From assembly GCA_964409645.1 (NCBI GenBank), contig CAYPEK010000004.1, positions 6,135 through 70,134 on the forward strand: a stretch of DNA of 64,000 nucleotides. Direction: 5' to 3'. The notes below the pieces were generated by a model, which saw only the letters and a program-made list of their open reading frames with translations, ran no database searches and had not been told where the DNA came from. The DNA comes from an uncultured bacterium. Lineage in GTDB: Bacteria > UBP15 > UBA6099. Both the position numbers and the translations under genes were made by a program. This document shows positions 5,595 through 63,548 of this stretch, piece by piece (position 1 is the stretch's first letter; each line of letters begins with the position of its first letter).

Positions 5595-6173
5595 GTGAAC
5601 GTTTATTCAGCAATACAACGGCGGCGCACGATCCGGCGGTTCAAAGAAACGCCCATCTCGGAGGCGTCGCTTATAAAACTCGTCGATGTCGCCCGGCTTG
5701 CGCCCTCCGCGGGCAACCAGCAGCCGCTCGAATACGTCACGGTCAATTCGAAGGAAAAATGCAGCGCCGTGTTCCCGCTCCTCAAGTGGGCGCGGTTCAT
5801 CAAACCCGACGACACGCCGCCCGAGGGCAAGCGGCCCGGCGCATATATAATCGTTCTGATAAACAGAAGCATCGCGTCGAAAGGCGGTTCGCACGACGCG
5901 GGCGCGGCGGTGCAGAACATCATGCTCGCCGCGCTCGAGGACGATATCGGCTCGTGCTGGCTGCGAACGATCGACCGCTCGGCAATAAAGGAGCTGTTCG
6001 GCATCCCGGACCACGTCGAAGTGGACAGCGTGATCGCGCTCGGCAAGTCCGCCGAATCACCGATGACCGAAACCGCACGCAGCGAAAACATCGAATACTG
6101 GCGCGACGAACGCGGTCTGATGCACGTGCCGAAACGCAAAATCGACAACGTTCTTCACAAGGAAAAATACTGA
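5595..6173 (+). CDS. Nitroreductase family protein
   Basis: Opens with the family hallmark IQRRRTIRRFKETPISEASLIKLVDVARLAPSAGNQQPLEYVTV, followed by GSCWL. Confidence 0.85.
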   Translation: MNVYSAIQRRRTIRRFKETPISEASLIKLVDVARLAPSAGNQQPLEYVTVNSKEKCSAVFPLLKWARFIKPDDTPPEGKRPGAYIIVLINRSIASKGGSHDAGAAVQNIMLAALEDDIGSCWLRTIDRSAIKELFGIPDHVEVDSVIALGKSAESPMTETARSENIEYWRDERGLMHVPKRKIDNVLHKEKY

Positions 6174-6187
6174 CGCGGGACGCAACA

Positions 6188-8185
6188 ATGCCCGACGAAA
6201 ACAAACCGCGCCCGGACTACCCCACCCTTACGACTGTGCATATCGCGACGCCGCAGATCACCTCCGGCGGCGATTTCGTTTACAGGCTCAGACAGCCTGA
6301 CACCGCTCTCGGCCGCATCCCCGGCGTCGCCACCGCGAGCATCACAAACATCTTCTCCCGCAGACGCGCGCTGTGCCTCAATGCCGACATCCTCGTCATA
6401 CAACTCCTCGGCGACCCTGATATGCTCCCGATTATGCTCGCGCGCCGCGCCGCAGGCAGACCGACGATCTTCGAAATCTCGGACAACTTCATGAACTTTC
6501 AGCTTTCGAATCCGGCCGCCGCATATCACGACGTCCCCGAAAACCGCGCATGCATCCTTCAGCTAATCGCGGAGGCGGACGCCGTTCAGACGACAGTTCC
6601 GCAGCTCAAAGAACTCTATTCGAAATACAACCCTCACATTGAGGTGTTTGAAAACCAGATCGAAACACCCGGCAGCACCGAGAAGCCCGACGGGCCTGTC
6701 GTCGTAGGTTGGGGCGGAAGTGTCGGCCACTTCGAGGACATCCGCGCCGCGGCGCCCGAAATTGTCCGCTGGCTCAACAGCCGCGCGGACGTTGTTTTCT
6801 CGCTTATGGCGGACCCGAAATTCAAGTCGTTTTTCAGCAACGCTCCGAAGAACAGGTTCCGATTCACACCTCCCGGCTCGCTTCAGGATTACTACTCGTT
6901 TGTCGGCGGTCTCCATATCGGGATCGCGCCGCTCAGGGACGACCCTTTCAACCTCTGCCGCTCAGACGTCAAATTCATCGAGTACGCATCCCACGGAGTA
7001 GTGCCGGTCTGCTCGGACGTGCCGACGTACAATCGCACGCTTCGCGACGGCGTAACGGGTTTTCTTTTCAGCAATACGGAGCAGATGATAGGAATTCTGG
7101 ACCGGCTCGCGACGGACATCACGCTGCGAAAAAAAATCGCGTCGCAGGCTTATGAATACATTAAAAACGAACGCTCGGAGCAGGCGGCGGCGGAACAACG
7201 ACTCGTATTTTACAAATCGCTGCTTCCGCATAATTACGCGCCCGGCAGTCTCGACGAGAAAAAACTGGAATCCATGCCGGGACTGAAACGCTTCGGCGAT
7301 TCCGCTCATTTCATCCACGAACTCACATTTGCCGAACAGCACATCTATAACGCACTCGTCTATCTGTACAACCAAGGAAATCCGGAAGAGGCGGAGAGGT
7401 CCGCGCGTGCGGCGGTATCCGCGGAACCGGACCATTTCTACGTGAATTATGTTCTCGGTGAATCACTGCTGAAAACCAACCCACACGCGGCGGAGAAATG
7501 CTTCCGAAAAGCTGCGGGGCTGTTTCCCGAATCCTGCGCGTCACGCCTCGCGGCGGCAAGACTGTCGGCGGCGGCAGGCAAATACCCGGAAGCGCGCGCG
7601 GCTCTGCAAAAGATTCAAAAAGATTGCCCGGCTTTCGCGCAGGCTTTCGCTCTCGAAGCGGAAATATCAATTGCGGAAAATGACGCGGCCGGCGCGGAGG
7701 CTCTGCTGCGGCGCGCGCTCGAAGCCAACCGGTTCTACTCTCCCGCATCGCTTCGCCTCGGCGCGATGAAACTCGAATCCGGCGACGCCGAAGAGGCGGA
7801 AATATTCTTCCGCGATGCGGCGGAGACGCTGCCGCGCTCGGCTGATGCACGTTGCGGTATGGCAATCGCGCTCGATACGCTCGGCCGGGAGAACGAAGCA
7901 GCGGAATTGCTCCTCGAAGCTTTGCCGCTCGCGACGGACCCGGCGCCGGTGGCCGGCTCGATCCTTAAGATCGCGCTCGATCGTTACAAATCCGGAAAAT
8001 TCGAGGACGCACTTTCACTGCTCGACCGTCTGCTCGACGGCGTGCCCGATCTGCTCGAAGCTATTTTCTGGGCGGCGCGCATCGCCGAGCGATCGGGCGG
8101 AAAGAAAGCCGCCCTCCCATATCTCAAGCGCCTCGCGGCGGCGGACACAGCGGGGAAATACAAACGTTCTTATCAGGATATGTGA
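6188..8185 (+). CDS. Glycosyltransferase (GT1-like Rossmann C-terminal fold) fused to a C-terminal TPR-repeat domain
   Basis: The track ORF 5759-8185 overlaps the nitroreductase gene. The in-frame ATG at 6188 (MPDENKPRPDY) is the plausible start. The GT-like core is GWGGSVGHFEDI...HIGIAPLRDDPFNLCRSDVKFIEYASHGVVPVCSDVPTYNRTLRDGVTGFLF. The C-terminal ~300 aa is Ala/Leu-rich with TPR-like periodicity. Confidence 0.6.
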   Translation: MPDENKPRPDYPTLTTVHIATPQITSGGDFVYRLRQPDTALGRIPGVATASITNIFSRRRALCLNADILVIQLLGDPDMLPIMLARRAAGRPTIFEISDNFMNFQLSNPAAAYHDVPENRACILQLIAEADAVQTTVPQLKELYSKYNPHIEVFENQIETPGSTEKPDGPVVVGWGGSVGHFEDIRAAAPEIVRWLNSRADVVFSLMADPKFKSFFSNAPKNRFRFTPPGSLQDYYSFVGGLHIGIAPLRDDPFNLCRSDVKFIEYASHGVVPVCSDVPTYNRTLRDGVTGFLFSNTEQMIGILDRLATDITLRKKIASQAYEYIKNERSEQAAAEQRLVFYKSLLPHNYAPGSLDEKKLESMPGLKRFGDSAHFIHELTFAEQHIYNALVYLYNQGNPEEAERSARAAVSAEPDHFYVNYVLGESLLKTNPHAAEKCFRKAAGLFPESCASRLAAARLSAAAGKYPEARAALQKIQKDCPAFAQAFALEAEISIAENDAAGAEALLRRALEANRFYSPASLRLGAMKLESGDAEEAEIFFRDAAETLPRSADARCGMAIALDTLGRENEAAELLLEALPLATDPAPVAGSILKIALDRYKSGKFEDALSLLDRLLDGVPDLLEAIFWAARIAERSGGKKAALPYLKRLAAADTAGKYKRSYQDM

Positions 8186-8236: not shown

Positions 8237-11089
8237 TCAGAACACAAGATTGTTCCTGTGGTTGGCCTGCTTGAGAATTTCGTCGAAGCTCTCGTCCGGC
8301 GTATTCTCTTTAGCTTCCTTCAGTTTCTTTTCCAGCTTCTTCGAGGGCGGATCACCGGGAATGTATTTGTAAACTTCCTCCAATTTCGCAAGCGACTCGT
8401 CCCACTTCCTCTGGAAATAGAATATGACGGCCTCTTCGTGCAGGCGCAGGCCTTTTTCCAGATCGTCCGGGATGCCGACTTCTTTCTTCTCTATAAGCTC
8501 GTAGATTTTCACCGGCTTTTCATAACCGGCGACCCATATTATGTCGAGCAGACGGGTGATAACGAACTCGTCGCACTCGACTTTCGTGAATTCCGATATC
8601 AACTTCTGCGTGTCGTAGTTTTTGCCGCCGCTTTCGAGGTGTTCCCCGAGTTCGACGGCGGGCCCCATCGCGGTGTAGTTGAACCGCCTGATGGACCCCA
8701 TGTTGCCGCAGATCATATCGCCCGTGTTGACTCCGCAGCGAACCTGAATGTCCGGCTTGCCGCGCTCGGCCCAGCCCACCCTCAATTCGGCGAGTTTCTC
8801 CTGCATTTCTATTGCCGTATAGCAACAGTTTTTTGCGTGTTCGGGGAACGGTATCGGCGCGCCGAAGATGCCCACTATGGCGTCGCCGATGTACTTGTCG
8901 AGTGTGCCGCCGTATTTCATAAGGATGTTCGTCATCGCGGTGAGATATTCGTTGAGAAGTTCGACGAGTTCCTCCGGCGTCATCGATTCCGATATCGTTG
9001 TAAAACCGGCGATATCGGAGAAGAAAACCGTTGCGTGCATCCGTTCGCCGCCGAGCTGCAGCTTGTCCGGGTTTGCGACGAGCGTATCGACGACCTGCGG
9101 GTTTACGTACGTCGAGAACATGCCCTTCATTTTCTTCTTTTCCTGCTCTTCTGTGATGTACCTGAAGAGGAATACGAGGAGGAATGTTCCGACAACGAGA
9201 ATGATCGGCGCGAGCAGCGGCAGATTGTATCTGAACTTGATGAACATGTAGTTGCAGAACACTGCGTAAAGCGCGGCGAAAAAGAACATGAGTGTGGCGT
9301 TGATGAGCGCGACAATAATGGAGGATTTGTGCTTGACCGCGCCGCCCGCTGAACCGAGACCGACCGCGAGCACGAAGAAGATCAGCACCACGAACCATTG
9401 GTTAACGCTGAGAATAAACTGGTTGGTGACGATAGTATTGATTACGTTCGCGTGTAGGCCGAGCACCTTGTAACGCGGTTCGAGCGGTGTCGGGTTAGTG
9501 TCCGCCGCGCCTGTTGCCGTAAGGCCCACAATCAGGATTCTGCCCTTCATATCCTCGACCATTTTTTCCGCCGCGACTGCATCGGATTCCCTGAATGCGG
9601 ATAGATTTTCACTCTCTTCCGGTGTAAGTTCCTGTCCCGATTCCTGCTTCTTTTTAATGGAGTACCACGTCAGGGAGTTGTATAAATTCCTGAAACTCAT
9701 GTGGCGAAAAAGCGACGTGTCCGCCCACATGCCCGTCCAGTTAATGAGCATCATCCCGTTAATGAGAGGAACTTCAACATCTCTTTTCGTCTTCGTCTTC
9801 GGATCGCGCGCATTCTTGAGGACAATTTTGTTCTTGCTGAAAACCACATCCTTCGGCTTCACGCCGAGATACTTCATTGCGACGAGAAGGTCTATATGCG
9901 GATACAGCCTTCCGTCGTACTCCACTACCGGCGCGATCAGCCTCATGGTGCCGTCGCCCTGCGTGAACTCGGCTTTCCTGATACCCTGACCCGCCACCTG
10001 CTCGCCGATCTCAGGCCACACGGGTTTGACTTTCCGCAACTCGACATATACGCCCTTCAATTTCTTGGGAACCGGGAAGGACCACTTGTCGTTTTGCTTG
10101 TGGAACTCGGCGAGTTCGGCAGCCTTTTCCTCTTTATCCTTCTTAATCATTTCAATGACGGACGCTTTGAAAGGTTCGCCCTTCTTTTTGTCCATCAGGT
10201 AGTCGAAATCCTTGATCAGCGCGTTTTCGTAAGCGTCGAAAACCGCGCCCTCGATGGGGTCCTCCGGCCGGTTCTTCGTGGGATAAGTAATGATGCGTTC
10301 GAAAATTTTTCTTATCCTTTTACTCTCTTTCAGATCCCTGATATCGTATGGCGAATCGAGACGATTCTTCGCGTCGTAAGTGAAATAGACGTTTTTCGCG
10401 GTTGTAGCGGCAGTTGCGATCACTTTCTCGCGATTGGGCGCGAGACCGCCTCGCGAACTTTCATTCTCTGCAAATGCGGCCACCTGCTGCATATAGTTCG
10501 AGAACGTCGTCATATTGGGATCGAAAAGAATTTCATCGAGTTTCGCGGCTATCGCCGGAGCGTTGGTCGCGGCATCCTGCTCTCCGAGCAATTCTCCGTA
10601 AAAACCGGCGTTCTGGAGCAACTGCGTCTGAAGCTGGGCGTCCTGAGTCAGGATAGAGCTGACCTGCTGTATCTTTCCGCTCAGGTCCTGAACCGCGATC
10701 GGAATATCGCTGAAGCTCATAGCCGTGTTAAGTTTCCGGCCGTAAGGCCAGTAATAGTTGATAGCAAACACAGTGGCGAGGGCATCGGCGTAATCTTTTC
10801 CAAGCCCTTCGATCAGATTCTGATAATAAACCGGATCATCCGGGAACGTGTTTTCCCATTCGAGGGTCGTCTCCTCGATCTCGACGATGATGACATCCTT
10901 GTTGGTCGGCGCTTTCGAGATCGCCTGCCGCAGCTTGAACTTCATGTCGAGGTCGGTGTTGAACAAATTCTTCAGCGGCCCCGACAGATAGAGAATTGCG
11001 AACAGGAGCGCAACCGCCAGTCCTATGAACGGCGATACAATGCGGCTCCTCTCTTCTGCCTTTGTCGGGAGTTTGAACGGTAACTTCAT
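8237..11089 (-). CDS. Membrane receptor class III adenylate cyclase (N-terminal TM, long CHASE2-like periplasmic domain, TM bundle, cyclase homology domain, C-terminal TPR-like tail). It keeps both metal-binding Asp but lacks the transition-state Asn/Arg (C1-like half).
   Basis: Cyclase homology domain motifs: VFFSDIAGFT (metal Asp1), LDKYIGDAIVGIFGAP (Lys + metal Asp2), RCGVNTGDMICGNMG. The distal motif reads YTAMGPAVELGEHLES instead of Y(D/T)xxGDxVNxAxR. A degenerate CHASE2-like signature VIIVEIEETTLEWENTFPDDP follows TM1. Confidence 0.85.
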   Translation of the reverse strand: MKLPFKLPTKAEERSRIVSPFIGLAVALLFAILYLSGPLKNLFNTDLDMKFKLRQAISKAPTNKDVIIVEIEETTLEWENTFPDDPVYYQNLIEGLGKDYADALATVFAINYYWPYGRKLNTAMSFSDIPIAVQDLSGKIQQVSSILTQDAQLQTQLLQNAGFYGELLGEQDAATNAPAIAAKLDEILFDPNMTTFSNYMQQVAAFAENESSRGGLAPNREKVIATAATTAKNVYFTYDAKNRLDSPYDIRDLKESKRIRKIFERIITYPTKNRPEDPIEGAVFDAYENALIKDFDYLMDKKKGEPFKASVIEMIKKDKEEKAAELAEFHKQNDKWSFPVPKKLKGVYVELRKVKPVWPEIGEQVAGQGIRKAEFTQGDGTMRLIAPVVEYDGRLYPHIDLLVAMKYLGVKPKDVVFSKNKIVLKNARDPKTKTKRDVEVPLINGMMLINWTGMWADTSLFRHMSFRNLYNSLTWYSIKKKQESGQELTPEESENLSAFRESDAVAAEKMVEDMKGRILIVGLTATGAADTNPTPLEPRYKVLGLHANVINTIVTNQFILSVNQWFVVLIFFVLAVGLGSAGGAVKHKSSIIVALINATLMFFFAALYAVFCNYMFIKFRYNLPLLAPIILVVGTFLLVFLFRYITEEQEKKKMKGMFSTYVNPQVVDTLVANPDKLQLGGERMHATVFFSDIAGFTTISESMTPEELVELLNEYLTAMTNILMKYGGTLDKYIGDAIVGIFGAPIPFPEHAKNCCYTAIEMQEKLAELRVGWAERGKPDIQVRCGVNTGDMICGNMGSIRRFNYTAMGPAVELGEHLESGGKNYDTQKLISEFTKVECDEFVITRLLDIIWVAGYEKPVKIYELIEKKEVGIPDDLEKGLRLHEEAVIFYFQRKWDESLAKLEEVYKYIPGDPPSKKLEKKLKEAKENTPDESFDEILKQANHRNNLVF

Positions 11090-11129
11090 GAGTATTCTCC
11101 TTGCGAAAGGCCGCGCGCGGCGGCGGTCG

Positions 11130-13982
11130 TTATTTCGTCGTCATCGTGTAAACGCCGTCCCAATTTTCGCCGGGCGGGTTGATCTTGTACTCCTCGCACC
11201 TGCCTAGGAAGATTCTGCTCGGACCGTCGTTCGGTTCGGCTTCGAGCGCCAGCTTGAACTGAGCGATCGCGTCGTCCCACTTCTGCGCGAGGTAGAGTTG
11301 CGTTCCGGTTACAAAATGCTTGCGGCAGGCTTCGAGGGTGGCCGTAAGTCCCTCGTCCGTGCGGCCCATCAGCTCGAACACTTCGACCGGTTCGTCGCGG
11401 CCCTTCACCCGTATCTTGTCTATCGAGCGGGCGATTATCTTGTCCTTCGCTTTCGCATACGTGAATTCGCTTATCATCAGGCTGGTCTTGTATTGCTTGT
11501 TGGCGCCGAGAATACGGGACGCGAGGTTTACGGCGTCGCCCATGATCGTGTAGTTGAACCGCGTCTCGGAGCCCATGTTCCCGGCGATCATCATGCCGGA
11601 GTTGATGCCCACACTCGTGTGGATCGGCTTCTTTCCCTCGGCTTCCCATTTCTTGTAAAGTTCGAGAGTGGCCTTGCGCATCTCGAGCGCGGCGTAACAG
11701 TTCTTGACGGCGTTGTCCTCGTAGTAAATCGGTGCGCCGAAAACGGCCATTATTATGCTTCCCTCGTATTTGTCTAACATTCCGCTGTTATCGAAGATCG
11801 GATCGGTCATCGCTGTGAAGTATTCGTTGAGGCGGTCAACAAGTTCCTCCGGCGTCTCGGCGTCCTCGAGGCCCGGTCCGGACGCGAGCGCGAACATCGC
11901 CGACAGGTCCATCTTCTCGCCGCCGAGCTGCAACTTCTCCGGGTTTTGTATCAGCGTATCGACGACCTCCGGGTTCACGTACGTCGAGAACATCGCCTTC
12001 ATCCGTTTCGCTTCCTGTCCCTCCGTCATGAACCTGTATATAACTACGAATAGATACGTGAAAACAAGCGAAAGGATGATCGGAAACACGATGATCCAGA
12101 GCCGTGCATACGCAAAAAGAAGATACGCGATTATCGTGTAGGCCAGTATTATTCCGAACGTGACCGCAGCGCCCTTTGCCTGTTTGTACATGCCGCCGGA
12201 GTAACCCGCGACAACCGAAAGAGCAATAATCGTAAGGAAGAAAAACCAGAACGGCGTAGTGCGGATAAACAACTGATTTACGATGGTGTTCACAAGGTTG
12301 CCGTGCATTCCGACGAGCGGGTAGCGCGGGTGGAACGGCATCGGGTTCAGGTCGTGCGTATCGGAAGCGGTTACGCCGGTGAGCGTGATTTTATTGTTGA
12401 AGAATTTCATTCGTTTCTTAACAGCGTCTATTTCCTTGTCCGAAAGGCCCCCCACCTGTTTCTGTTCCGCCTGCGTGAGCGTTTCCCCGCGGTCGAACTT
12501 ATTCATAATGTTGTATATCACGGCATCGTCGTGAACGCGCCTGAAACTGCGGTGGACGAATGTGTTCGGCTGCATGTATGTGCCGGACCAGTTCACAAGC
12601 ACCGTCCCGTCGTCGAGAAGCGGTATCGTCACATCGAATTTTTTCTTATCTCCCGGTTTTGTGCAGTTCTTCAGGACAATTTTGTTCTCGTAGAAAACAA
12701 CGTCTTTCTTTTTAACGTCGAGATATCTCATCGCCAGCATCAGGTCGATATGAGGATAGAGCCTACCCTCGAACACGACCACCGGCGCCGCCGCGCGTAT
12801 GATTTCCGTGTACCATTTCAGTTCCGGCATGACGTATCCGTCGCCCGCCGAGAATTCGCCCACGGATTTGATCGGCGACTCCATCGTCACTATGTTGACG
12901 TATTTCTTGAACAGCTTTTCCTTGGAAACTGGAGCATCCTTTCCTATATCGAATCCGAACGGGTAATTTGCCTCTATGATGTTCTGATTGTATGCGTGCA
13001 ACTTATCCCGTTCGTTTTTTATTGCTTCCCTTTCGACATCTGTAAACGGGAGAGCTTTTCTTCCGCCTTTCTCTTTCGCCTGCTCTAAAAGCCTGTCGTA
13101 ATCCTCGACCTTCATGTTGCGGAGAGCGTAGTTGACGGCGACTTCTTCCTTGTTTTTCGTCTTCGCCCTGTCCGCCATGACAATCAGCTTCTGGAAAATT
13201 CCGTGGTAATGCGGATCGTACATTATCTGGCCGATCGTCACTGTCGTCCGTTCCGGCTTCGTCACAGTCTGCGCGAGATACACATTGCCAGCGTACTGGA
13301 TCGCGTCGTGGAGTATCTTGTCCCTGTCGGGCGCGATTCCGGACGGATCTGAACTTTCGAACAAAGATATTCCTTGTGAATTGAATTGATCGATCTGCGT
13401 CTGCATCGTTTTGTTGCCGGCGACTCCGAGCAGCTTGTTCTTCGCCGAATCGAGCGTCGGCAGTGTCGGCGGCAGCCTCAGTTCCTCACCCGCCTCGTAA
13501 AGTCCGTTCTTCACTTCGTCTATCGTCGCCTGATTTTCCTGAATCTGAGACGGCAGCTTATCGAACGTGCCCGCTATTTCATTGTTTAGGATCGGCCCCG
13601 AAGGATCGAAGAAGAATATATCGAAGAATGTCCCCTTTGCTTTTGAGCCCGGCGTGCCGAGGCCGCGGATAATTTCCGCGTACAGCCTGCGGTCGAACGG
13701 CCACGGCTTCCATTCCCAGCTCTCGTCGTCGATGTCGAGCAGAACGAGATTCTGCGAGATGTTCTTCTGCGGCATCGCTCCCCTGATCCGGAAGCGCACG
13801 TCGTACGTCCAGTATTCCATCTTGTTGTAGAAGTCGTTGACAATCGAAAGCGTGCTGTTGGCCTTCATCGTCTTGGTGTTGAACATAAGCCCGAAAATCA
13901 CGGCCACCACTAAGCCTATCAACACGCCCATGATCGGGTTTCGTTTCTCAGGGCTTTTCGGGAGTCCCAGCGAAAATTTCAT
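11130..13982 (-). CDS. Paralogous membrane CHASE2 class III cyclase, also 950 aa. Both metal-binding Asp are substituted, but Lys/Thr/Asn/Arg are retained (C2-like half).
   Basis: CHASE2 signature NLVLLDIDDESWEWKPWPFDRRLYAEII...FFDIFFFDP. Cyclase domain has AMFALASGPG in place of FFSDIAGFT and LDKYEGSIIMAVFGAP with Ser in place of the second Asp. It keeps VGINSGMMIAGNMG and YTIMGDAVNLASRIL. Confidence 0.85.
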   Translation of the reverse strand: MKFSLGLPKSPEKRNPIMGVLIGLVVAVIFGLMFNTKTMKANSTLSIVNDFYNKMEYWTYDVRFRIRGAMPQKNISQNLVLLDIDDESWEWKPWPFDRRLYAEIIRGLGTPGSKAKGTFFDIFFFDPSGPILNNEIAGTFDKLPSQIQENQATIDEVKNGLYEAGEELRLPPTLPTLDSAKNKLLGVAGNKTMQTQIDQFNSQGISLFESSDPSGIAPDRDKILHDAIQYAGNVYLAQTVTKPERTTVTIGQIMYDPHYHGIFQKLIVMADRAKTKNKEEVAVNYALRNMKVEDYDRLLEQAKEKGGRKALPFTDVEREAIKNERDKLHAYNQNIIEANYPFGFDIGKDAPVSKEKLFKKYVNIVTMESPIKSVGEFSAGDGYVMPELKWYTEIIRAAAPVVVFEGRLYPHIDLMLAMRYLDVKKKDVVFYENKIVLKNCTKPGDKKKFDVTIPLLDDGTVLVNWSGTYMQPNTFVHRSFRRVHDDAVIYNIMNKFDRGETLTQAEQKQVGGLSDKEIDAVKKRMKFFNNKITLTGVTASDTHDLNPMPFHPRYPLVGMHGNLVNTIVNQLFIRTTPFWFFFLTIIALSVVAGYSGGMYKQAKGAAVTFGIILAYTIIAYLLFAYARLWIIVFPIILSLVFTYLFVVIYRFMTEGQEAKRMKAMFSTYVNPEVVDTLIQNPEKLQLGGEKMDLSAMFALASGPGLEDAETPEELVDRLNEYFTAMTDPIFDNSGMLDKYEGSIIMAVFGAPIYYEDNAVKNCYAALEMRKATLELYKKWEAEGKKPIHTSVGINSGMMIAGNMGSETRFNYTIMGDAVNLASRILGANKQYKTSLMISEFTYAKAKDKIIARSIDKIRVKGRDEPVEVFELMGRTDEGLTATLEACRKHFVTGTQLYLAQKWDDAIAQFKLALEAEPNDGPSRIFLGRCEEYKINPPGENWDGVYTMTTK

Positions 13983-14176: not shown

Positions 14177-16261
14177 CTATCGATTCCTTACAAACAGATA
14201 AATAACTGGTGAATCGCCGACCTTTTCATTTCGATAACCTTCGAGCGGCAGGTTTTTCTTTTCGAACACATCCGCGTCGTCCATCGCGACCACGAAAAAA
14301 CTGTCGCCGAGCCAGCCCGCCGCCGGAGTCTCGATCTTTCCGCTCATCGAATAAAAACGTCCGATCCTGTCAACGAATCCGCCGCCCGCCGCCGGATGAG
14401 ATATCTCCGCGTCCAAGGTGTCCCTGTCTCTCCTGTCGAAAGCATCCCACCCGTTCGCATCAAATACAAACGGCAGATAATAAGAATACGGATAGATCAC
14501 CACCGGGGTGTCGCGCAACTCCTGACTCGACACCACATCCCGCGCAACGGCGAACTGTTTTTTTGCGCGGCTCTCGCGGCTTTCCCTCAACACATCCCCG
14601 CCACTCCTGTTCAACACGAACAACGCCGCCGCTATCACTGCAACAGACACAGCCAACCGAACCGCGCGGCCGGAAATCCCGGAGCCCCCACGTTCCGCGC
14701 TCTTCAACACCGCCTCCGTCACAATCCCGGCAGAGACGAATACACACGGCAATGCAAAGAAAAAATAATGGTCAATGTTTTTCAACACCCCTGCAAACAT
14801 CAGTCCGGCCGTGGCGGACACCCCACACGCTGCGGATAAAATTATCGCGCCCCTGAAATCCTTTCTAAAAACAAATGCCGCCGCAAACAAAACACACGCC
14901 CCGGCCGCGTAAGCCCCCAGCGCTCCTGCCGATCCGGACGCCGGCAGCTCCGTTAAATGCCAGACCGCGGCTCGCAGCCCTAACGCCGAAGGAAGAATCA
15001 GCGCCGCCGCGAAAAGAATAAACCGCGCCATACCCGCCGCACCGCGCTTTTCGCGTATCAGCAAAACCTCGTTCACCGCTGGACCGGCGAGAAGCGTCAC
15101 GGTCAGCGGATTCGACAACACCATGCACGACGCGAACAAGTCGAATAGGAAATACCTGCCGGGCTTCGGGTCGCGGGCTATCCCGTCATACAGCAGAAGA
15201 GCTCCCGAGGATAAGAACATGAACAGCGCATACCCCCTGATGTCCTGAATCGAATAATTTACATAAATCATCGAAGGTATGATCGCCGCTATCCACGCAA
15301 CGCTCTTTCTCACATGCTTCGCAAGAAGCGCGTAAGTGAAACACGCCGCGAGCGCCGCGAACACCAGCGAGATGCCGCGAATGACAGCGAAGCTTTTTGC
15401 TTTAACGAGAAAAAGAAGGAGCGTGCGATTGAGCAGCGCCGGCATCCCCGGGTCTCCGAAGATGTACACGGCCTTCAGGTCGAAATTCTCCACCGGCCAC
15501 TTGGCAAACCCGGGGAGAACCGCCAGATCGTCCAACGAACAGAAAGACCACAGAGTACTTTTATACATGCCCGCGAACACAAGCAACATAAAAGCCGCGA
15601 ACAAAAAATCGTACAAGCGGCCCTTTCCGCCTCCCGGGACGGGAAGCATCCGTACTCCCGCGATGCCTTTTGAATCGTTTTTCGGCTTATTGAACAGATG
15701 CGCCAAATCCATCGCAAGCAGCAAAACGATAAAGAAAATAATTATCGAAACCAGCCACCTGAAATTCGCCGCAAGAAATGAGGCTGCCTCGGCTGTCCAC
15801 TTTTTCGACCCCGAGAAATTCTCCTGCTGTGCCTCAATTCCCTTAACATATCCGATTATTCCTCTAAGGATTTTCTCATTTCGGGAACTGATGTCTCCAC
15901 TGGCGCGATACGAAATATTATATTTCTTCGTCCGTTCGTAGCACGGCTTTTCTGCATCCGCCGGCATGAAATTCACCACCAGCGAATCGCCGCCGGGACC
16001 TGACAGCGACATCTCCTCCGCGCCGTCTTCATACTTTTTCTCCTCGGACAAACGCCATCCATCCGCCCCGCCCGTGCCAAGATACTCCTTCACCATATCC
16101 GCAGCTTCCGGCATGCGGCCGGACGCACTCCCGGCCTCCGGAAAAACCGGCAGCTTTGTCGCGCACGCATACAAAACTAGAAGCGCCGCCGCAACCACAA
16201 TAATAAAACCGACGCCTCCCGGCCTCTTTCCACTCTTTCCGCTTCTTCCGGAACTCGCCAT
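14177..16261 (-). CDS. Polytopic membrane protein, putative GT-C-type glycosyltransferase (ArnT/PMT-like)
   Basis: 694 aa with at least 10 predicted TM helices and long hydrophobic stretches, plus a ~120-aa C-terminal soluble domain. No sharp motif was recognised; the assignment rests on architecture and glycosylation gene context. Confidence 0.35.
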   Translation of the reverse strand: MASSGRSGKSGKRPGGVGFIIVVAAALLVLYACATKLPVFPEAGSASGRMPEAADMVKEYLGTGGADGWRLSEEKKYEDGAEEMSLSGPGGDSLVVNFMPADAEKPCYERTKKYNISYRASGDISSRNEKILRGIIGYVKGIEAQQENFSGSKKWTAEAASFLAANFRWLVSIIIFFIVLLLAMDLAHLFNKPKNDSKGIAGVRMLPVPGGGKGRLYDFLFAAFMLLVFAGMYKSTLWSFCSLDDLAVLPGFAKWPVENFDLKAVYIFGDPGMPALLNRTLLLFLVKAKSFAVIRGISLVFAALAACFTYALLAKHVRKSVAWIAAIIPSMIYVNYSIQDIRGYALFMFLSSGALLLYDGIARDPKPGRYFLFDLFASCMVLSNPLTVTLLAGPAVNEVLLIREKRGAAGMARFILFAAALILPSALGLRAAVWHLTELPASGSAGALGAYAAGACVLFAAAFVFRKDFRGAIILSAACGVSATAGLMFAGVLKNIDHYFFFALPCVFVSAGIVTEAVLKSAERGGSGISGRAVRLAVSVAVIAAALFVLNRSGGDVLRESRESRAKKQFAVARDVVSSQELRDTPVVIYPYSYYLPFVFDANGWDAFDRRDRDTLDAEISHPAAGGGFVDRIGRFYSMSGKIETPAAGWLGDSFFVVAMDDADVFEKKNLPLEGYRNEKVGDSPVIYLFVRNR

Positions 16262-23435: not shown

Positions 23436-23451
23436 GTACAATTAATTGTAC
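23436..23451. promoter_or_regulatory. Perfect 16-bp palindrome GTACAATTAATTGTAC, a candidate TA operator/promoter
   Basis: Located 19 bp upstream of the antitoxin start. It contains a TACAAT -10-like hexamer. Type II TA complexes typically autoregulate through such palindromes. Confidence 0.55.
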
Positions 23452-23469
23452 AATAAAGGGGGCAATTAT

Positions 23470-23739
23470 ATGTTGAAGGATATAACGATATCCAAGGCGC
23501 GTGACGAGCTCACCTCCCTGCCGAAGAAATTGTCGAAGAACCATGAAACGGTTGCCGTAACCCGGCGAGGCAAACCGGTGCTCGCGATTATGCCGTGGGA
23601 ATTGTACGAATCGGTTGTCGAAACTCTTGAGATTATGGGCGACGAAAAACTCATGACGTCGCTACGCGAGAGCATAAAGGATATAAAAGCCGAAAGACTA
23701 TATACCTCCGAAGAAGTCAAAAAGGAACTCGGCCTGTGA
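23470..23739 (+). CDS. Phd/YefM-family type II antitoxin
   Basis: MLKDITISKARDELTSLPKKL...VAVTRRGKPVLAIMPWELYESVVETLEIMGDEKLMTSLRESIKD. Strong SD AAAGGGGG sits 8 nt upstream of ATG 23470. The stop TGA overlaps the GTG start of the downstream toxin reading frame (GTGA). Confidence 0.8.
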   Translation: MLKDITISKARDELTSLPKKLSKNHETVAVTRRGKPVLAIMPWELYESVVETLEIMGDEKLMTSLRESIKDIKAERLYTSEEVKKELGL

Positions 23740-24058
23740 GCAGTACGAAATATGATGTGATGTGGACCGCGAGTGCGAAAAAAATGCTCGCCGCGACCGG
23801 CGCATCATGGGCAAGATATTCGAGCGCGCTTGCGAGCTTTCCGTGGAGCCGGAAAAACAGGGAAAGCCGCTTACGAACGAACTTTCGGGCTACCGGAGCG
23901 TCCGCGCTGTCGGCCAGAGATACCGCATAATTTACAACGTCGAAAAAAAGAAGGTTGTTGTATATATTGTAGCCGCAGGACTTAGAAGAGGCGACCAGAA
24001 AAAAGACATATACGAGCTTGCGAAGAAGCTCATCCGCACGGGGTTGATCGACAGATAA
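23736..24058 (+). pseudogene. RelE/ParE-family toxin gene disrupted by a -1 frameshift at an A7 homopolymer (23778-23784)
   Basis: N-terminal MSSTKYDVMWTASAKK is in frame 0, starting at GTG 23736. The remaining 90 aa are in the -1 frame (ORF 23762-24058): RRDRRIMGKIFERACELSVEPEKQGKPLTNELSGYRSVRAVGQRYRIIYNVEKKKVVVYIVAAGLRRGDQKKDIY. Adding one A to the A7 run gives a continuous 107-aa RelE-like protein. Confidence 0.75.
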
Positions 24059-57739: not shown

Positions 57740-58852
57740 TCATTTAAATATTTCCTTCAGTTTCTTAAACACCCTTTTCTGCGGGTGCGAGAGGTCCTCG
57801 CCGCCCTCCTCTGCAAACTGCTTGAGGAGCTTCTTCTGATTCGCCGTCAGCTTCTCCGGCACCATAACCTTCACAACTACATGCTGGTCGCCTTTGTGCG
57901 AACCGCGCAGATTCGGGAAACCCGCGCCGCGCATCCGGAATATCGCCCCCGTCTGCGTGCCCGCCGGTATCTTTATCGCCTGCTTGCCGTAGAGCGTCGG
58001 CACCTCGATCTCGTCGCCGAGCGCCGCCTGCGTGAAGCTGATCGGCACCTCGCAGTAAACATCCTGACCGTCACGCTTGAAAAACTCGTGCTCCATCACA
58101 TGGATGACAATGAACAGATCGCCTCGCGGGCCGCCGCGCTCGCCATACTCCCCCTCGCTGCTCAACCGCAGCCGCTGGCCCGTTTCAACACCCGGCGGCA
58201 CCGAAATCTGCAGCTTGCGCGAGCCGCGCACGCGGCCCATTCCCCGGCATTCGCCGCACGGGTCCGCAACCTCCACGCCGGTGCCCCGGCACGACGGGCA
58301 CGTCTGCACGTTCACCATCTGACCGAACAGCGTCTGCTTCGTCTGCCTGAACTCGCCCGTGCCGCCGCAGCGCGAGCATTTCACCGGCGGCGCGCCCGAC
58401 TTCGAGCCCGTGCCGCCGCATTTCTCGCACTTCACCTGCGACGGGATTTCAATCTCCGCGTTCTTTCCGAACGCCGCGTCGAAGAAAGAGATTTCGATAT
58501 CGTATCGAAGATCGGCGCCGCGCGCGGGCCCGCGGCTTGCTCCGCGTCCGCCACCGCCGCCGCCGAAAAACATGTCGAAGATGTCACCGAAACCGCCGAA
58601 TCCGAAATCGTCCGCCTGCCCGCGCCCGGACAGCCCTTCGTGCCCGTACCGGTCGTAAACCGAGCGCTTCTGATCGTCACTCAGCACCTGATACGCCTCG
58701 GAGACTTCCTTGAACTTCTCCTCGGCCTGCGCGTCGTTCGGGTTAACATCCGGGTGGAGCTTCCTCGCGAGCTGCCTGTACGCCTTCTTGAGTTCGTCCT
58801 GCGTGGCGCCGCGGGAGACGCCGAGAACCTCGTAGTAATCGCGTTTTGCCAT
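57740..58852 (-). CDS. dnaJ: Chaperone DnaJ
   Basis: J-domain [35 protein letters not shown]. Gly-rich linker. Four CxxCxGxG repeats ([32 protein letters not shown]). Confidence 0.95.
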
Positions 58853-58907
58853 GTTGCGTTTTGCCAACCTCTCAAATGCGCGCAAGCGCCCCGTCCGGCG
58901 GAGCGCG

Positions 58908-59933
58908 TCACACGCACGAATATTTCTTCAGAACTTCCGTCAGCGCGCTCGACACCTCGCGCACCATCCCTATCAGCCTCGCGTAATTCATCCGCCTCGG
59001 CCCAAGCAGCCCCACCGTCCCGACCGTCCTGTCGCCGAACCTGAACTGGCTCTTGATGATGCTGCAGTCGTGCAGAGACTCGATCGCGTTCTCGCGGCCG
59101 ATTATCACCTTCGCCACGCCGGTGTCGCCGCGCAGCGTGAATATCCCCGATTCGTTCTCCGGGCTTTCGAGCGCCTCGAGCACCGGGCCGAGCCTGCCCG
59201 CCTCCTGAAACTCCGGATGCCGTATCAGCCGCGTCGAACCCTGCACGAAAACACGGCTGCCCACCCCCACAATCAGCTCCTCGAAAAATCCCATCAGATA
59301 CTGATACAAGGAATCGTGCTGCATCCTGATGTCCCTGAATATTTCCGTGAGGCCGGCCGCCGTCACATCCTCGATCTTCTTGCCCGAAAGCCGGTTGTTG
59401 AGCTGCCTCGTGATCCACTCCACCGGGAACTTGTCCACCGGCATCGGCAGTTCCACCAGCTTGTTCTCGACATGTCCATTGCTCAACACGAGAATAATCA
59501 GCAGCGTGCGCTCGGAGACGCCCGTCAGTTCCATCCGCCGGATCTCGCTCCGCGTCTCCTCCGGCACCGCCACGAACGAAACGCAGTCGCTCCACGACGC
59601 CAGAAGCGCCGAAACCTGCCTCATGAGCTGGTCGAGCTTGAACTGGATCGTATCGATCGAACGGCGCACCGCGATGCCGTCTTCCTCCGCCGACTGATAC
59701 TCCTCGCGGAGCGCATCGACGAAAAAACGGTAGCCGAGGTCGGCCGGTATGCGGCCCGCGGACGTGTGCGGCTGTTCGAGATAACCGGCGTCGAGCAGAT
59801 CGTGCATCTCGTTGCGGGCCGTTGCCGGGCTAACGCCGAGCTTCTCGGCGATCCGCTTAGATCCGACAGGCAAGCACGTATCGACGTACTCCGTCACAAC
59901 GTGCTTGATGATTTTCGACTTTCGTTCGTCCAA
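58908..59933 (-). CDS. hrcA: Heat-inducible transcriptional repressor HrcA
   Basis: [73 protein letters not shown]. The start is uncertain: the track ORF runs to 60014 and TTG at 59933 is plausible. Confidence 0.8.
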
Positions 59934-60140
59934 CCTTAACCACCGCTCAGATGTCCGCACCGGACATCGCCATTCCAATCCGAATATTATATTGAATGAG
60001 GCGGCGGAAAGCAAAAAAGTAAGTCCGCATTCAAATCAAACAGACATCAAAATGGCTTTCCGGCGCTCGCAAAGCATATTCGCGATGTGCCGCCCGGCAA
60101 AAAAAGCTCCGTCAAAAACAAATTTATTTTTAAAACTGCT

Positions 60141-60166
60141 TAAGTTTTTCTCCTACCCGCCGATTC
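60141..60166 (+). promoter_or_regulatory. Sigma28 (FliA)-type promoter candidate: TTAAGTTT, 11 nt spacer, GCCGATTC
   Basis: This fits the consensus TAAAGTTT-N11-GCCGATAA with a perfect GCCGAT core and exact spacing. It lies ~70 nt upstream of ATG 60236. Confidence 0.45.
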
Positions 60167-60235
60167 CATATAACATAGTATTTATTATTATCATTGATTG
60201 TATTTTACCAACAAATTAATTGAGGAGTGAACGCC

Positions 60236-62698
60236 ATGTCGATACTTAATAGTCTGTCCGGCCTTTCAACAAACAGTCTTCTGATTTCGAATAAAAACTC
60301 GGCGGCTTCAAGCAAAAAAAACGGACTTTTCAGCAAATCAGCGGCCGCCAAGACAAATGCAAGCTACAAAGCAACCATTTCATCCAACGTGGATTCACTT
60401 AGCACGCTCATCGGTCAGGTGGACAGCGAACTCTCCGTTTTCACTGCGACAAGCTCCCTGACGAAAAACATCAACTTCAGCTCAGCATTCAAAAGCGCGT
60501 TTTCCAACTCGGCGTTCAACCAATCCTCATTTTCTCTAACGCCTCAAACCGCCTCACAGAAGATCACAAGTCTCGCAAAGAATATCGTCGATACCGCATC
60601 GAGCACCAACAACCTCCCGTCGTCTCAGAAAATCAAACTACTGCTCGCTGTCATGAACCTGATCGACAAAGCCTTCACAAGCACGAAAGATATCTACAAT
60701 TCGATGAACCTTTATTCCGGCTATAACGCACAAAGCCTCCAGCAGACGCAATCACTCACCTCTCAAAATCTGACCAGCTACCTGAACTCTCTAACAACAT
60801 CCACCTCGTCCGGCACGGCTACCGGAACGACTACGGGCGCCACAACCGGAACAGCCGGTACAACAACAGGAACAACTCCCACGCAGCCCCCCAATACACA
60901 AACAACAACACAATCAACACCCTCCTCGATCCTCAGCGATCCGAATGCTCAGAAAGCACTCGAAACGCTCAAAAACAGCGATTATTTCTATTTTGGGTCG
61001 GGAACAATGGCCTTACAATATCCAATAGATGGGATAATTGACAATATTCATTTTAGTAACCAATTACAAACCGATATAAATGGTATCCAGCATGTTATTT
61101 CCGTATCGCTTGAAACCAATACAGTAATGCTCGATTACGGGACACAAACATTCGGTAATTTTTTCGGTAATTTAACTGAAGCAAGTAAATATATTGATAC
61201 CGCACAGCAAGCAACTATTTTAGATTCATCCGGTCAAACACATACAATACAGGGCGTATTTGCAAATGGAACAGTGACCGACACTGTTGTTGACGGTGTT
61301 ACAATGAACTCGCAGGAACTCGTGAATTGGGCTTCGAGTGCAGGTTTGGCGGCCAATACCTATACAATCTCTTCCGGCCAACAAATAACCGAGTACCACG
61401 CAACAACTCAGTCGCCTTATGGAAGTTCTGATGCAATTATCGCAGCGACTGTGGACGGACAGGCGCTTAACCGCCAAGAGTATCTTATAGACCACAGAAG
61501 ATATAGTAACGCTCCTAATTGGCCCGCCGTTTCCGGTTATGTTGAAACTCCTTCCGGTAATTATGTTTATTTAGACGAAAATATGGTTGCCGGCCAAGCA
61601 ACGATTAACGGAACTTCGGTAACCGATCAGCAGCTTGTCAACTGGGCAAAACAGGAAGGCCTTGAGACAAAATCTTATGACATCGCCGGGAATCAAGTTA
61701 ACGAATATTATGCCAGTTTTGTCACATCATTAGGTACAAAGAAAATCCGAATCGCAGCAGAAGTGAACGGAATCGTTTGCAACAGCCTAAATTGGGTCAA
61801 CTCTTCTGGATCGCAATTATTTTTTTCTGAAAACACCGCAACTATCGAAGATGCTTCGGGCAATTACATTACAACCGGCCTCTGGAAAACATGGTACGAC
61901 GTACAGACGGCCCAAGTAGAAGAAAGCTTGTTTTCAATTAATGGAATGGTCCTTACTAATGAGCAGGATAATATCGACTGGGCTAAAAATAACAATCTTT
62001 ACAACAGAACCCTTACTGTAAACGGCAAAAATGTAACAGAATATTACATCTATGACACAAGTCAAACTGACAAAAACATATTAAATTTATTTGCGGTTGA
62101 AGTTGATGGAACTGCTTATTCTATCAGTGATTATGTAAATTCGGCATACAAAGCGCCGGATTTGACCTTAACAGCCAGCCCGATTGTGCTTGATCTCACG
62201 GGGAATGGAATCGAATCGGTCAGTGCGGAACAGGGAGTTCAGTTCGACCTCCTCGGGACGGGCCAAAAGGTGCAGACCGGCTGGGTGAGCCCGGGCGCGG
62301 CCTTCCTCGCCCTCGACAAGGACAACAGCGGCTCGATCGAGAGCGGCAAGGAGCTGTTCGGCAACCAGAGCGGCGCCGCCAACGGCTACGAGGAACTCGC
62401 AAAATACGACGAGAATAACGACGGCGTCATAAACGCCTCCGACTCCATCTACAACAAGCTCCTTCTGTGGCAGGATACCAACATGAACGGCGTGAGCGAC
62501 ACCGGCGAACTAAGCAGCCTCGCCGACACCGGCGTCTCATCCATCAACGTCAACTACAATACCGTCTCCGAAACGGTGACGGGCGGCAACCAGATACGCC
62601 AACGCTCGTTCTTCACTTTTGAAAACGGCACAACGGGCAACACCGCCGATATCTGGTTCCGCTACAACGCGTTTTCGGCATATGTCAACGTCGCCTGA
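60236..62698 (+). CDS. Ser/Thr/Asn-rich 820-aa mosaic protein: no signal peptide, Thr-rich linker, three ~55-aa internal repeats, C-terminal module with three DxDxDG-type Ca2+-binding loops
   Basis: SD GAGGAG 11 nt before ATG 60236. Coding DNA 60236-62200 is AT-rich, and the last ~500 bp are native high-GC. Repeats VTDQQLVNWAKQEGLETKSYDIAGNQVNEYY, MNSQELVNWASSAGLAANTYTISSGQQITEYH and LTNEQDNIDWAKNNNLYNRTLTVNGKNVTEYY. Ca2+-loop motifs DKDNSGSIE, DENNDGVINASD and DTNMNGVSDTGE. Confidence 0.65.
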   Translation: MSILNSLSGLSTNSLLISNKNSAASSKKNGLFSKSAAAKTNASYKATISSNVDSLSTLIGQVDSELSVFTATSSLTKNINFSSAFKSAFSNSAFNQSSFSLTPQTASQKITSLAKNIVDTASSTNNLPSSQKIKLLLAVMNLIDKAFTSTKDIYNSMNLYSGYNAQSLQQTQSLTSQNLTSYLNSLTTSTSSGTATGTTTGATTGTAGTTTGTTPTQPPNTQTTTQSTPSSILSDPNAQKALETLKNSDYFYFGSGTMALQYPIDGIIDNIHFSNQLQTDINGIQHVISVSLETNTVMLDYGTQTFGNFFGNLTEASKYIDTAQQATILDSSGQTHTIQGVFANGTVTDTVVDGVTMNSQELVNWASSAGLAANTYTISSGQQITEYHATTQSPYGSSDAIIAATVDGQALNRQEYLIDHRRYSNAPNWPAVSGYVETPSGNYVYLDENMVAGQATINGTSVTDQQLVNWAKQEGLETKSYDIAGNQVNEYYASFVTSLGTKKIRIAAEVNGIVCNSLNWVNSSGSQLFFSENTATIEDASGNYITTGLWKTWYDVQTAQVEESLFSINGMVLTNEQDNIDWAKNNNLYNRTLTVNGKNVTEYYIYDTSQTDKNILNLFAVEVDGTAYSISDYVNSAYKAPDLTLTASPIVLDLTGNGIESVSAEQGVQFDLLGTGQKVQTGWVSPGAAFLALDKDNSGSIESGKELFGNQSGAANGYEELAKYDENNDGVINASDSIYNKLLLWQDTNMNGVSDTGELSSLADTGVSSINVNYNTVSETVTGGNQIRQRSFFTFENGTTGNTADIWFRYNAFSAYVNVA

Positions 62699-62726: not shown

Positions 62727-63548
62727 TTATCTTGAATATACTTGTAAAAAACCCGCAAGCGGCATTCCTGTGATGTTATCCGAGTAGAGCATCCCGCCCT
62801 CTGTGCAGTTGAACGCCTCGAAACCGCGTTCCTCCCGCCTCCGGTGGGCGACATATCCGTCTATCCATTCCAAAGAGAGCAGAAAACTTTTGAGCGTATG
62901 AAACCGGCGGCCGTCCGTCAGTTCGAGCAGAAGGTAGTTCTCAGAATCTTTCCAGCCCGGTTCCGGCTCCGGCGCGCTCAAGTCCACACCCGCGAAACAG
63001 ACAGGCCGACAGCCCATCAGATCCGCGAGCGCGAACGCGAAATTTGAAACAATGAACCCGCCGGGGATGAACGCCGCCCGGCCGCATATCCGGCGTGCCT
63101 CCGCCATATAGTCGGGGTCTTTGTCCTGTGTGTTGTAGAAAACCACCTGTTTCCACGGCAGAGCGAGCGTTTCCTTCGGGGTGTACGTCGAGGCGAGCAG
63201 CGTGTCGCGTTCGATACCCGGCCCGGCGAAAAAAGACGCCGTTGCCGCGCTTGGGTCTGTGGTCACAACAAAGTCGGGGGTTACGCCGAGGCTCACGAGC
63301 CTGTCGCGCCCGCGGTCGCACACGAACACGACCGCATCGCCGTGTTCCCGCAGCAGCGCGCAATTCCTTTCGATTCCGGGCCCCGCGCCGACGACAATTC
63401 CCGCCCTGCCCGCGCACGACCCCTTATACTCACCCGCATGAGGATGCTTTTCGACAACAGGCGCGTTCTTCCTCATGTTCGCGAGCATCAGATCCAATCG
63501 TATGTGGCGCGATTCGTCCAAAGCTGCTCCGATGTTTACAGCCTGCAT
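62727..63548 (-). CDS. DUF115-family protein (MptE-like / Maf motility-accessory-factor-like)
   Basis: Gly-rich nucleotide-binding-like IVVGAGPGIERN. 273 aa. Family assignment is from overall similarity recall only. Confidence 0.4.
   Translation of the reverse strand: MQAVNIGAALDESRHIRLDLMLANMRKNAPVVEKHPHAGEYKGSCAGRAGIVVGAGPGIERNCALLREHGDAVVFVCDRGRDRLVSLGVTPDFVVTTDPSAATASFFAGPGIERDTLLASTYTPKETLALPWKQVVFYNTQDKDPDYMAEARRICGRAAFIPGGFIVSNFAFALADLMGCRPVCFAGVDLSAPEPEPGWKDSENYLLLELTDGRRFHTLKSFLLSLEWIDGYVAHRRREERGFEAFNCTEGGMLYSDNITGMPLAGFLQVYSR

Follow-up and report, generated by a model that had tools for sequence, protein, structure and literature searches.

A probable sigma-28-type promoter element before a mosaic gene with a self-processing module in an uncultured bacterium

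The stretch of DNA analysed here, hereafter the window, comprises 64 kb of contig CAYPEK010000004.1 from an uncultured bacterium. On its plus strand, at 60140-60166, an element of the sigma-28 (FliA) promoter type lies in a gap of ~300 nt, with hrcA (minus strand) on one side and an open reading frame (ORF, plus strand) for an 820-aa protein on the other. Promoters of this class serve late flagellar genes as well as some genes outside the flagellar system. The promoter alone is an ordinary kind of element, and the protein behind it is an unusual mosaic. The lineage of a closely related organism is flagellated and uses this exact promoter variant for a late flagellar gene, flgL, and in several members of the family to which the protein belongs, sigma-28-type promoters or flagellar neighbours recur.

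The promoter element and the 820-aa protein

As the sigma-28 criterion, we used a -35 block TAAA(GTTT) and a -10 block GCCGATAA/T placed 11 nt apart (TAAA-N15-GCCGAT). The window site, TTAAGTTT-N11-GCCGATTC, agrees with the consensus TAAAGTTT-N11-GCCGATAA at 13 of 16 positions, i.e., with three mismatches. A previous reading of the letters alone (the sequence-only reading) had singled out the string cTTAAGTTT-ttctcctaccc-GCCGATTCc, which we recovered at 60139-60167 (plus strand); the element proper spans 60140-60166, so that the start given earlier was off by one. The match scores claimed for it were reproduced (7/8 to TAAAGTTT and 6/8 to GCCGATAA), as were the spacer of exactly 11 nt and the intact GCCGAT. 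The ATG at 60236 lies 70 nt downstream of the element. The features of this region are as follows.

60114..60139, plus strand: A/T-rich tract AAAAACAAATTTATTTTTAAAACTGC, directly 5' of the -35 element and containing a palindromic A/T run; a possible UP element.
60140..60147, plus strand: -35 element TTAAGTTT of the sigma-28-type promoter.
60148..60158, plus strand: spacer ttctcctaccc, of the canonical length of 11 nt; its first four bases (ttct) are also present in the flgL promoter of a related flagellar locus (L017).
60159..60166, plus strand: -10 element GCCGATTC (consensus GCCGATAA/T), with the GCCGAT core kept.
60173..60175, plus strand: predicted transcription start, from the usual 6-8 nt after the -10 element, giving a leader of ~62 nt.
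60222..60227, plus strand: strong ribosome-binding site GAGGAG, 8 nt 5' of the ATG.
60236..62698, plus strand: coding sequence of the 820-aa Ser/Thr/Asn-rich mosaic protein (24% Ser+Thr).

Copies of the gene with 96-100% identity are present in four other assemblies. The -10 element reads GCCGATTT in the 96%-identical strain (L003/L005), and these sister strains are too alike for promoter conservation to be informative.

Two properties that had been read from the letters hold for the protein. It lacks a signal peptide and a membrane helix, as none of its segments is hydrophobic enough for either (maximum 19-residue hydropathy of 0.85), and its N-terminus is predicted by AlphaFold2 to be disordered (pLDDT 33-38 over residues 1-50). 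From the N-terminus to the C-terminus, we delimited the following parts.

60236..60385, plus strand: disordered N-terminus, residues 1-50, MSILNSLSGLSTNSLLISNKNS..., predicted with AlphaFold2 and like the N-termini of family members.
60395..60799, plus strand: DUF5610-like helical bundle, residues 54-188, modelled with AlphaFold2 at pLDDT >90 over most of the range.
60800..60928, plus strand: Thr/Gly/Pro-rich low-complexity linker, residues 189-231.
61247..62155, plus strand: three divergent repeats of ~110 aa, residues 338-640, with the pattern ING..T..Q.LVNWA...L...Y...G..V.EYY....AAEVDG.
62180..62659, plus strand: self-processing module (SPM; PF26745), residues 649-808.
62648..62695, plus strand: conserved C-terminal tail DIWFRYNAFSAYVNVA, residues 805-820, with the motif W-x-R/K-F/Y-N-x-x-x-A/S-Y.

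The AlphaFold2 model of the N-terminal part was built from a three-sequence alignment; the single-sequence model of residues 225-820 was unreliable (mean pLDDT 40). The window protein matches PF18433 (DUF5610) with 20.2 bits (E 8e-4), where the Pfam gathering threshold is 26.4 bits. A Foldseek search of the PDB with the bundle returned nothing significant; the highest-probability match (probability 0.82, TM-score 0.63 normalised to the target) was 3sjr, the 117-residue protein CV_1783 of Chromobacterium violaceum, which has no known function and is probably the seed structure of DUF5610. A helical bundle of ~120-135 residues is what the window family shares with DUF5610, to which it adds the disordered N-terminal extension and the conserved C-terminal tail. 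We know of no function for DUF5610. The ~110-aa repeats have no Pfam match, and a regex search detected no repeats-in-toxin (RTX) GGxGxD motifs in the 820-aa protein.

The most informative feature of the protein is the C-terminal SPM, which the sequence-only reading had missed. This type of module is the basis of the NeissLock protein-ligation technology. About 160 residues align with the SPM of FrpC (structures 6sjw/6sjx) at E 6e-28, and PF26745 was also a precomputed Pfam hit. The FrpC pair W451/W519 is kept as W683/W745, G477/G491 as G709/G717, and D579 as D805. Three EF-hand-like Ca2+ loops are likewise kept (DKDNSGSIESGKE, DENNDGVINASD and DTNMNGVSDTGE), while the first, N-terminal Ca2+ site is degraded, with DLTGNG versus DLDGDG (D-x-T-x-N). 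FrpC D478 is Asn in the window protein, a change that is tolerated in FrpC (PMC7078468).

The SPM as described folds on Ca2+ and strains the Asp414-Pro415 bond, the Asp side chain attacks its own carbonyl, and the anhydride that is released cross-links to lysines; modules of the SPM and RTX kinds remain unfolded at the Ca2+ level of the cytosol and acquire their fold once exported (PMC7078468). In the window protein, the scissile Asp-Pro is replaced by Ser648-Pro649 (…LTLTAS-PIVLDL…, 62177-62185). Ser-Pro is invariant in four strains and also occurs in the homologue P0008 (L011, ~3992-4000), and P0002 has Thr-Pro (residues ~704-705). Because the Asp-Pro is absent, we describe the region as an SPM-like scaffold and not as a proven clip-and-link module. 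These replacements suggest that Ser/Thr-Pro SPMs form a natural subclass unable to carry out the described Asp-Pro clip-and-link reaction; on a conservative reading, the Ser-Pro SPM would be a latch that folds in a Ca2+-dependent manner without cleavage. Other differences from the FrpC system are the location of the SPM, which is at the extreme C-terminus here and internal in FrpC, and the lack of both RTX repeats and nearby type I secretion genes.

The sole Asp-Pro of the protein is D235-P236 (60938-60943), 413 residues upstream, at the junction between the linker and the part of the protein that follows it. The surrounding motif is conserved with residues 216-217 of the L011 protein (SILSD-PNAQKALETLK versus SILED-PAIKAIVQRMK). 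A shift of the SPM cleavage site to D235-P236 was considered and rejected as improbable, since the pair reads Asp-Gln in P0004, a 96%-identical strain.

A related flagellar locus and the family of the protein

Taken alone, the window motif is accurate but not clearly beyond chance, and it is significant only together with comparative evidence. The position matrix used for scoring was derived from the 50 FliA-bound motifs that ChIP-seq had defined in E. coli (Table 2 of PMC4183435). The unusual TTAAGTTT octamer of the window site is also the -35 octamer of E. coli ycgR, where its function is proven and which is among the promoters that depend most strongly on FliA (PMC4183435).

In the flagellar locus represented by L017 and L019, the gene order is flgF-flgG-flgA-flgH-flgI-flgJ-GT-flgN-flgK-flgL-fliW-csrA, where GT is a glycosyltransferase gene. 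The best sigma-28 match on either strand of the 20.8-kb L017 (19.3 bits), TTAAGTTT-ttcttgatacg-GCCGATATA, is located in the 75-nt gap between flgK and flgL, 38 nt before flgL. This site agrees exactly with that of the window in its -35 octamer, in the spacing of 11 nt, in the GCCGAT and in the initial four bases of the spacer. Among all the loci fetched, the exact TTAAGTTT-N11-GCCGAT sequence was found only before copies of the 820-aa gene and before flgL, and with at most one mismatch, 0.03 matches would be expected by chance in L017.

The relatedness of this locus to the window organism is seen in several ways. L018, which represents the L017 flagellar locus again, belongs to the metagenome assembly GCA_020047475.1, and this assembly also holds L001, a 99%-identical copy of the window gene. 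In L006, the FlgG encoded beside P0009 has 90% identity to the FlgG of L017; it falls into a 90%-identity cluster of which the other members are encoded on larger contigs. The tetranucleotide correlation between L017 and the window is r = 0.91, compared with 0.96 between parts of the window and 0.37 for an unrelated locus. Since it carries the L- and P-ring genes flgH and flgI, the related lineage has two membranes. L017 may have another late promoter at 15114-15140 (plus strand), where a weaker sigma-28-like site, CAAGGATT-N11-GCCGGTAAG (12.2 bits), is situated in the 3' end of GT, immediately ahead of flgN-flgK.

An exhaustive phmmer search with residues 1-648 as the query identified, as relatives of the window protein, P0008 and six small proteins of 228-289 aa (P0009-P0014), which align to residues ~6-215 (E 8e-14 to 6e-5). 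The full-length 820-aa query returned only near-identical copies and one hit restricted to the SPM. P0009 (46.7 bits) and P0010 (36 bits) exceed the DUF5610 threshold, and the NCBI name of P0010 is 'DUF5610 domain-containing protein'. P0008, encoded in L011 (38% identity, E 7e-80), has approximately nine copies of the ~110-aa unit, of which the window protein has three, and then ends in the same SPM and tail as the window protein. The P0008 gene call (854-4534 of L011, 1-4534; 1226 aa) is truncated, and the ORF is open to an ATG at 179 (MAQISNALITSLLSG…), giving 1451 aa; a 239-aa gene call on the opposite strand of L011 (97-816) is probably spurious.

The tail motif is common to all the members, both the small DUF5610 proteins without an SPM and the large proteins with one, and it is often followed by hydrophobic residues. 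The tail might act as a signal for secretion, bind a chaperone or form a helix that packs against the N-terminal bundle. As judged from these alignments, the window protein looks like a small family member with the repeats and the SPM inserted between the linker and the tail. No new family loci were found in the genome collection, JGI metagenomes or viral contigs, and a plasmid tblastn search with P0009 gave no match; the family therefore comprises seven loci.

The upstream regions of six independent homologues were scored with the same FliA matrix as the window site, with the following results.

Window, 820-aa protein: TTAAGTTT-N11-GCCGATTC, 12.4-12.7 bits, 70 nt to the ATG.
L007, P0010: cTAAAGAAT-N12-GCCGATAT, 21.8 bits, 71 nt to the ATG.
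L010, P0011: cTAAGGTTA-N12-GCCGACCA, 9-11.5 bits, 46 nt to the ATG.
L013, P0012: poor match, about 8 bits, 216 nt to the ATG.
L012, P0013: poor match, 7.5-9.4 bits, 122 nt to the ATG.
L006, P0009: no convincing site, about 6 bits, 43 nt to the ATG.
L011, P0008 (re-read ORF): no convincing site, 2-3 bits, 142 nt to the ATG.

A sigma-28-like motif is thus strong in one of the six homologues (L007, with a null probability <0.003), weak but alignable in a second (L010, whose upstream region aligns with that of the window over the entire promoter), and absent or poor in the remaining four. In L006, the gene for P0009 is divergent from the adjoining flgF-flgG. Within ~1-3 kb of the DUF5610-family gene, a creatininase-family gene is present in two loci, at L007 1349-2311 (P0010) and at L003 15693-16718 (downstream of the window gene); this shared neighbour may be a synteny remnant between related genomes or a coincidence.

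Transcription, export and alternative explanations

Our preferred explanation, to which we assign a probability of about 0.6 as a whole, is that the 820-aa protein is sigma-28-driven and exported by a non-Sec route as a Ca2+-folding surface protein. The first part of this proposal is the firmer: judging by the motif and its counterparts, the window element is quite probably a functional sigma-28 promoter. The element at 60140-60166 would be read by sigma-28 (FliA/SigD class) RNA polymerase, with a start at ~60174, and the protein would be made together with late flagellar genes. In the family as we picture it, a disordered N-terminus leads into a DUF5610-type bundle and a flexible linker, and a short tail closes the chain; the repeats and the SPM of the window protein would be a 'passenger' inserted before that tail. 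The protein would leave the cell unfolded by a non-Sec route and fold outside, on extracellular Ca2+, into a surface or adhesin-like protein; export of this kind followed by folding outside the cell is the most likely course because a Sec signal is missing and Ca2+ at extracellular levels is needed for the SPM to fold. As the route, we favour flagellar type III export, in which the N-terminus would act as the signal and the tail possibly as a chaperone-binding site, as in late flagellar substrates. Of all the steps proposed, the route of export is the least secure: the promoter, the N-terminus and the tail agree with flagellar export, whereas the precedent of other SPM proteins and the conservation at the extreme C-terminus agree with type I secretion. 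The sequences themselves show the motif, its return at flgL and in family members, the family and the domain architecture; for the window organism, we infer the sigma-28 dependence, the export, its route and the function after export.

The window element shares with the class 3 flagellar promoters (sigma-28; FliA in E. coli, SigD in Bacillus; ycgR, tar, fliC and flgKL) the two-block TAAAGTTT-N11-GCCGATAA architecture and the typical distance to the gene. It differs from them in positions 7-8 of the -10 element, which are TC and not AA/AT, and in that the window gene is not a known flagellar, chemotaxis or motility gene. In Campylobacter jejuni, non-flagellar proteins with N-terminal signals exit via the flagellar export apparatus (PMC5223770, PMC2764114). 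The window protein resembles C. jejuni FedB, CiaI/CiaC and FspA in its sigma-28-type promoter, the lack of a Sec signal, a disordered N-terminus expected to hold the export information and the location of its gene outside any flagellar operon. There is no sequence similarity to these proteins, however, and they are small, whereas the window protein has 820 aa with repeats and a Ca2+-dependent module.

Several observations weigh against the proposal. The departure of the last two -10 positions from the consensus is one of them, and the modest score of the window site is another, as it corresponds to the 13th-26th percentile of real sites on a matrix made of E. coli FliA sites. A random 250-nt segment of these sequences reaches at least 12 bits with P ~0.02, so that ~1 chance hit of this score is expected among the ~55 upstream regions of the window, and several sites inside window genes score above the promoter site. 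Of the six independent homologues, three (L006, L011 and L012) are without a convincing sigma-28 motif, and L013 has a poor one at a large distance. Neither fliA nor any flagellar gene is present in the 64-kb window, as had already been noted, or in ~9 kb beyond it. The GC content of L017 is 49%, versus 57% for the window, which makes L017 a relative and not the window's own genome. To our knowledge, all known SPM proteins are type I secretion substrates and none is flagellar. Moreover, many FliA-bound sites in E. coli have no detectable transcript (PMC4183435).

Part of this evidence also favours an alternative that we consider unlikely, namely, that the motif is a chance match with a coincidental likeness to the flgL site and that the gene is read by a housekeeping sigma factor from the A/T-rich region, e.g., from TATAAC at 60168-60173 or another -10-like hexamer. 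With only ~12.5 bits, the site is of a strength expected at about one upstream region per window, and some sites within genes score better. Several -10-like hexamers occur in the A/T-rich intergenic region, and half of the family members lack the motif. Nevertheless, the window site shares 14 specified bases and four spacer bases with the site that scores best for sigma-28 in the entire flagellar locus and that stands right before flgL, and a near-perfect site precedes P0010 at the same distance from the ATG. TATAAC is without the conserved final T and is TATAGA in the sister strain, and no sigma-70-like promoter at ≥9/12 was found on the plus strand between 59990 and 60236. When the consensus was searched with at most three mismatches, the window had three matches versus 0.41 expected, the other two of which lie within coding sequence; among the window matches with at most two mismatches, only the site before the 820-aa gene is neither inside nor antisense to a gene.

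A second alternative, also improbable in our view, concerns the route. Like FrpC, FrpA and ApxIVA, the protein could be a type I secretion substrate that leaves the cell through an ABC transporter, a membrane-fusion protein and an outer-membrane channel, with the tail as its signal; such secretion could coexist with transcription by sigma-28 but would exclude flagellar export. The lack of an N-terminal signal peptide, the conserved extreme C-terminus with its hydrophobic end (YVNVA / YIDVA) and the two membranes of the related lineage are consistent with this route, and all SPMs described to date are from RTX proteins secreted by type I systems (PMC7078468). The RTX nonapeptide repeats of such substrates are missing, however, and genes for an ABC transporter, HlyD or TolC were not found in the window or at any family locus. 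Furthermore, the same tail is found on proteins of 230-290 aa that otherwise have just the DUF5610 bundle and whose genes have a sigma-28 promoter or a flagellar neighbour.

The sequence-only reading had proposed an axial or cap-like flagellar protein with O-linked glycans, which a Maf-like enzyme from the adjoining DUF115 gene would add to Ser/Thr. This is very unlikely: although the sigma-28-type promoter, the Ser+Thr content, the Thr-rich linker, the missing signal peptide, the flagellin-like pattern of conserved termini around a variable middle and the DUF115 gene next door agree with it, the middle and C-terminal parts are repeats and an SPM, the conserved C-terminal element has ~12 residues and is not a D0 helix, and no flagellar family was detected. 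This last result covers Flagellin_N/C, FliD_N/C, FlgK_D1, Flg_bb_rod and Flg_bbr_C, which were absent at E ≤0.01 for the whole protein and at E ≤10 for its N-terminal 250 residues; the earlier remark that there is no flagellin motif accordingly extends to a lack of homology to flagellin, FliD, FlgK and FlgL. Flagellar Pfam families were not reported in the other family members either. Of that earlier proposal, the sigma-28/FliA-type promoter and the link to the flagellar regulon stand, with the flgL element, the L007 and L010 promoters and the location of P0009 beside flgF-flgG in their favour; the axial or cap identity does not, the domains being a DUF5610-like bundle, novel repeats and a FrpC-type SPM.

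The glycosylation argument fares no better. The neighbour does belong to DUF115 (PF01973, E 3e-22), as had been claimed. By our criterion, a Maf/PseD protein has a DUF115/MptE-like core within a ~600-aa Maf architecture, passes the PseD score cut-off and is linked to its substrate gene. The window gene encodes 273 aa and is only marginally Maf-like, with 25 bits against the NCBIfam PseD model (cut-off 670 bits) and E 0.022 against the solved Maf 5mu5. It is convergent with the 820-aa gene and has its own near-consensus sigma-70-type promoter (TTTACG-17-TATAAT, 63592-63564, minus strand). A DUF115 gene is absent beside the other six family loci, and the related flagellar locus carries a GT1-type transferase, not Maf.

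If the preferred explanation of a sigma-28-driven, exported protein is true, DUF5610 would be tied to the flagellar regulon, which would be the first functional context for this domain. The window protein would be a candidate adhesin-like exoprotein co-regulated with motility in an uncultured lineage, lengthening the short list of non-flagellar proteins that are made, and possibly exported, with flagella. It would also place an SPM outside the RTX toxins, with the nucleophilic Asp changed to Ser/Thr and the strained-amide scaffold otherwise kept, a natural experiment on the scaffold without its anhydride-forming residue. More speculatively, and with doubts that outweigh our confidence, the DUF5610-plus-tail proteins could be an unrecognised class of late sigma-28 flagellar-export cargo in an uncultured two-membrane lineage, in which the disordered N-terminus and the tail would serve as an export 'cassette' for passengers and the SPM variant, through its Ser/Thr-Pro junction, as a Ca2+ folding latch that does not cleave or as a site of chemistry other than the Asp-anhydride reaction.

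Neighbouring genes and minor observations

The genes adjoining the promoter region and the 820-aa gene are as follows.

57740-58885, minus strand: dnaJ, after hrcA (DnaJ E 3e-139).
58908..59933, minus strand: divergent hrcA, start uncertain within 59898-59933 (Pfam HrcA E 4e-50); upstream border of the promoter region.
62727..63548, minus strand: DUF115/MptE-like gene, 273 aa, convergent with the 820-aa gene.

In this window, hrcA is directly followed by dnaJ, without grpE-dnaK between them (57740-59933, minus strand). Control of the intergenic region by HrcA through a CIRCE operator was rejected; the operator TTAGCACTC-N9-GAGTGCTAA was not found with at most three mismatches anywhere in the 64-kb window. 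An RNA element in the 5' leader was likewise rejected, as Rfam gave no match and the folding z-score was 0.01.

The promoter of the DUF115 gene ends just 15 nt before its ATG, and no Shine-Dalgarno sequence is present; given this distance, its mRNA would be nearly leaderless.

The other sigma-28-like matches in the window (4211, 10728, 23934, 24071, 27800, 43343 and 59938) were rejected as they lie inside or antisense to genes. Two sigma-28-like matches are antisense to a pair of genes for a Phd/YefM antitoxin and a ParE-family toxin (23446-24058, plus strand), located between a GH115 glycosidase gene and a GT2 gene, and were taken as chance.

Large putative glycosyltransferases with tetratricopeptide repeats (TPR) are encoded nearby, at 5759-8185 of the window (plus strand; weak GT1-like region) and at 21688-22469 of L003 (minus strand; TMEM260_N with TPR). 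They are candidates to modify Ser/Thr-rich secreted proteins, with no link to the 820-aa protein established. Finally, two tandem paralogues of 950 aa at 8237-13982 of the window (minus strand) each combine a CHASE2 sensor with an adenylate/guanylate cyclase domain.

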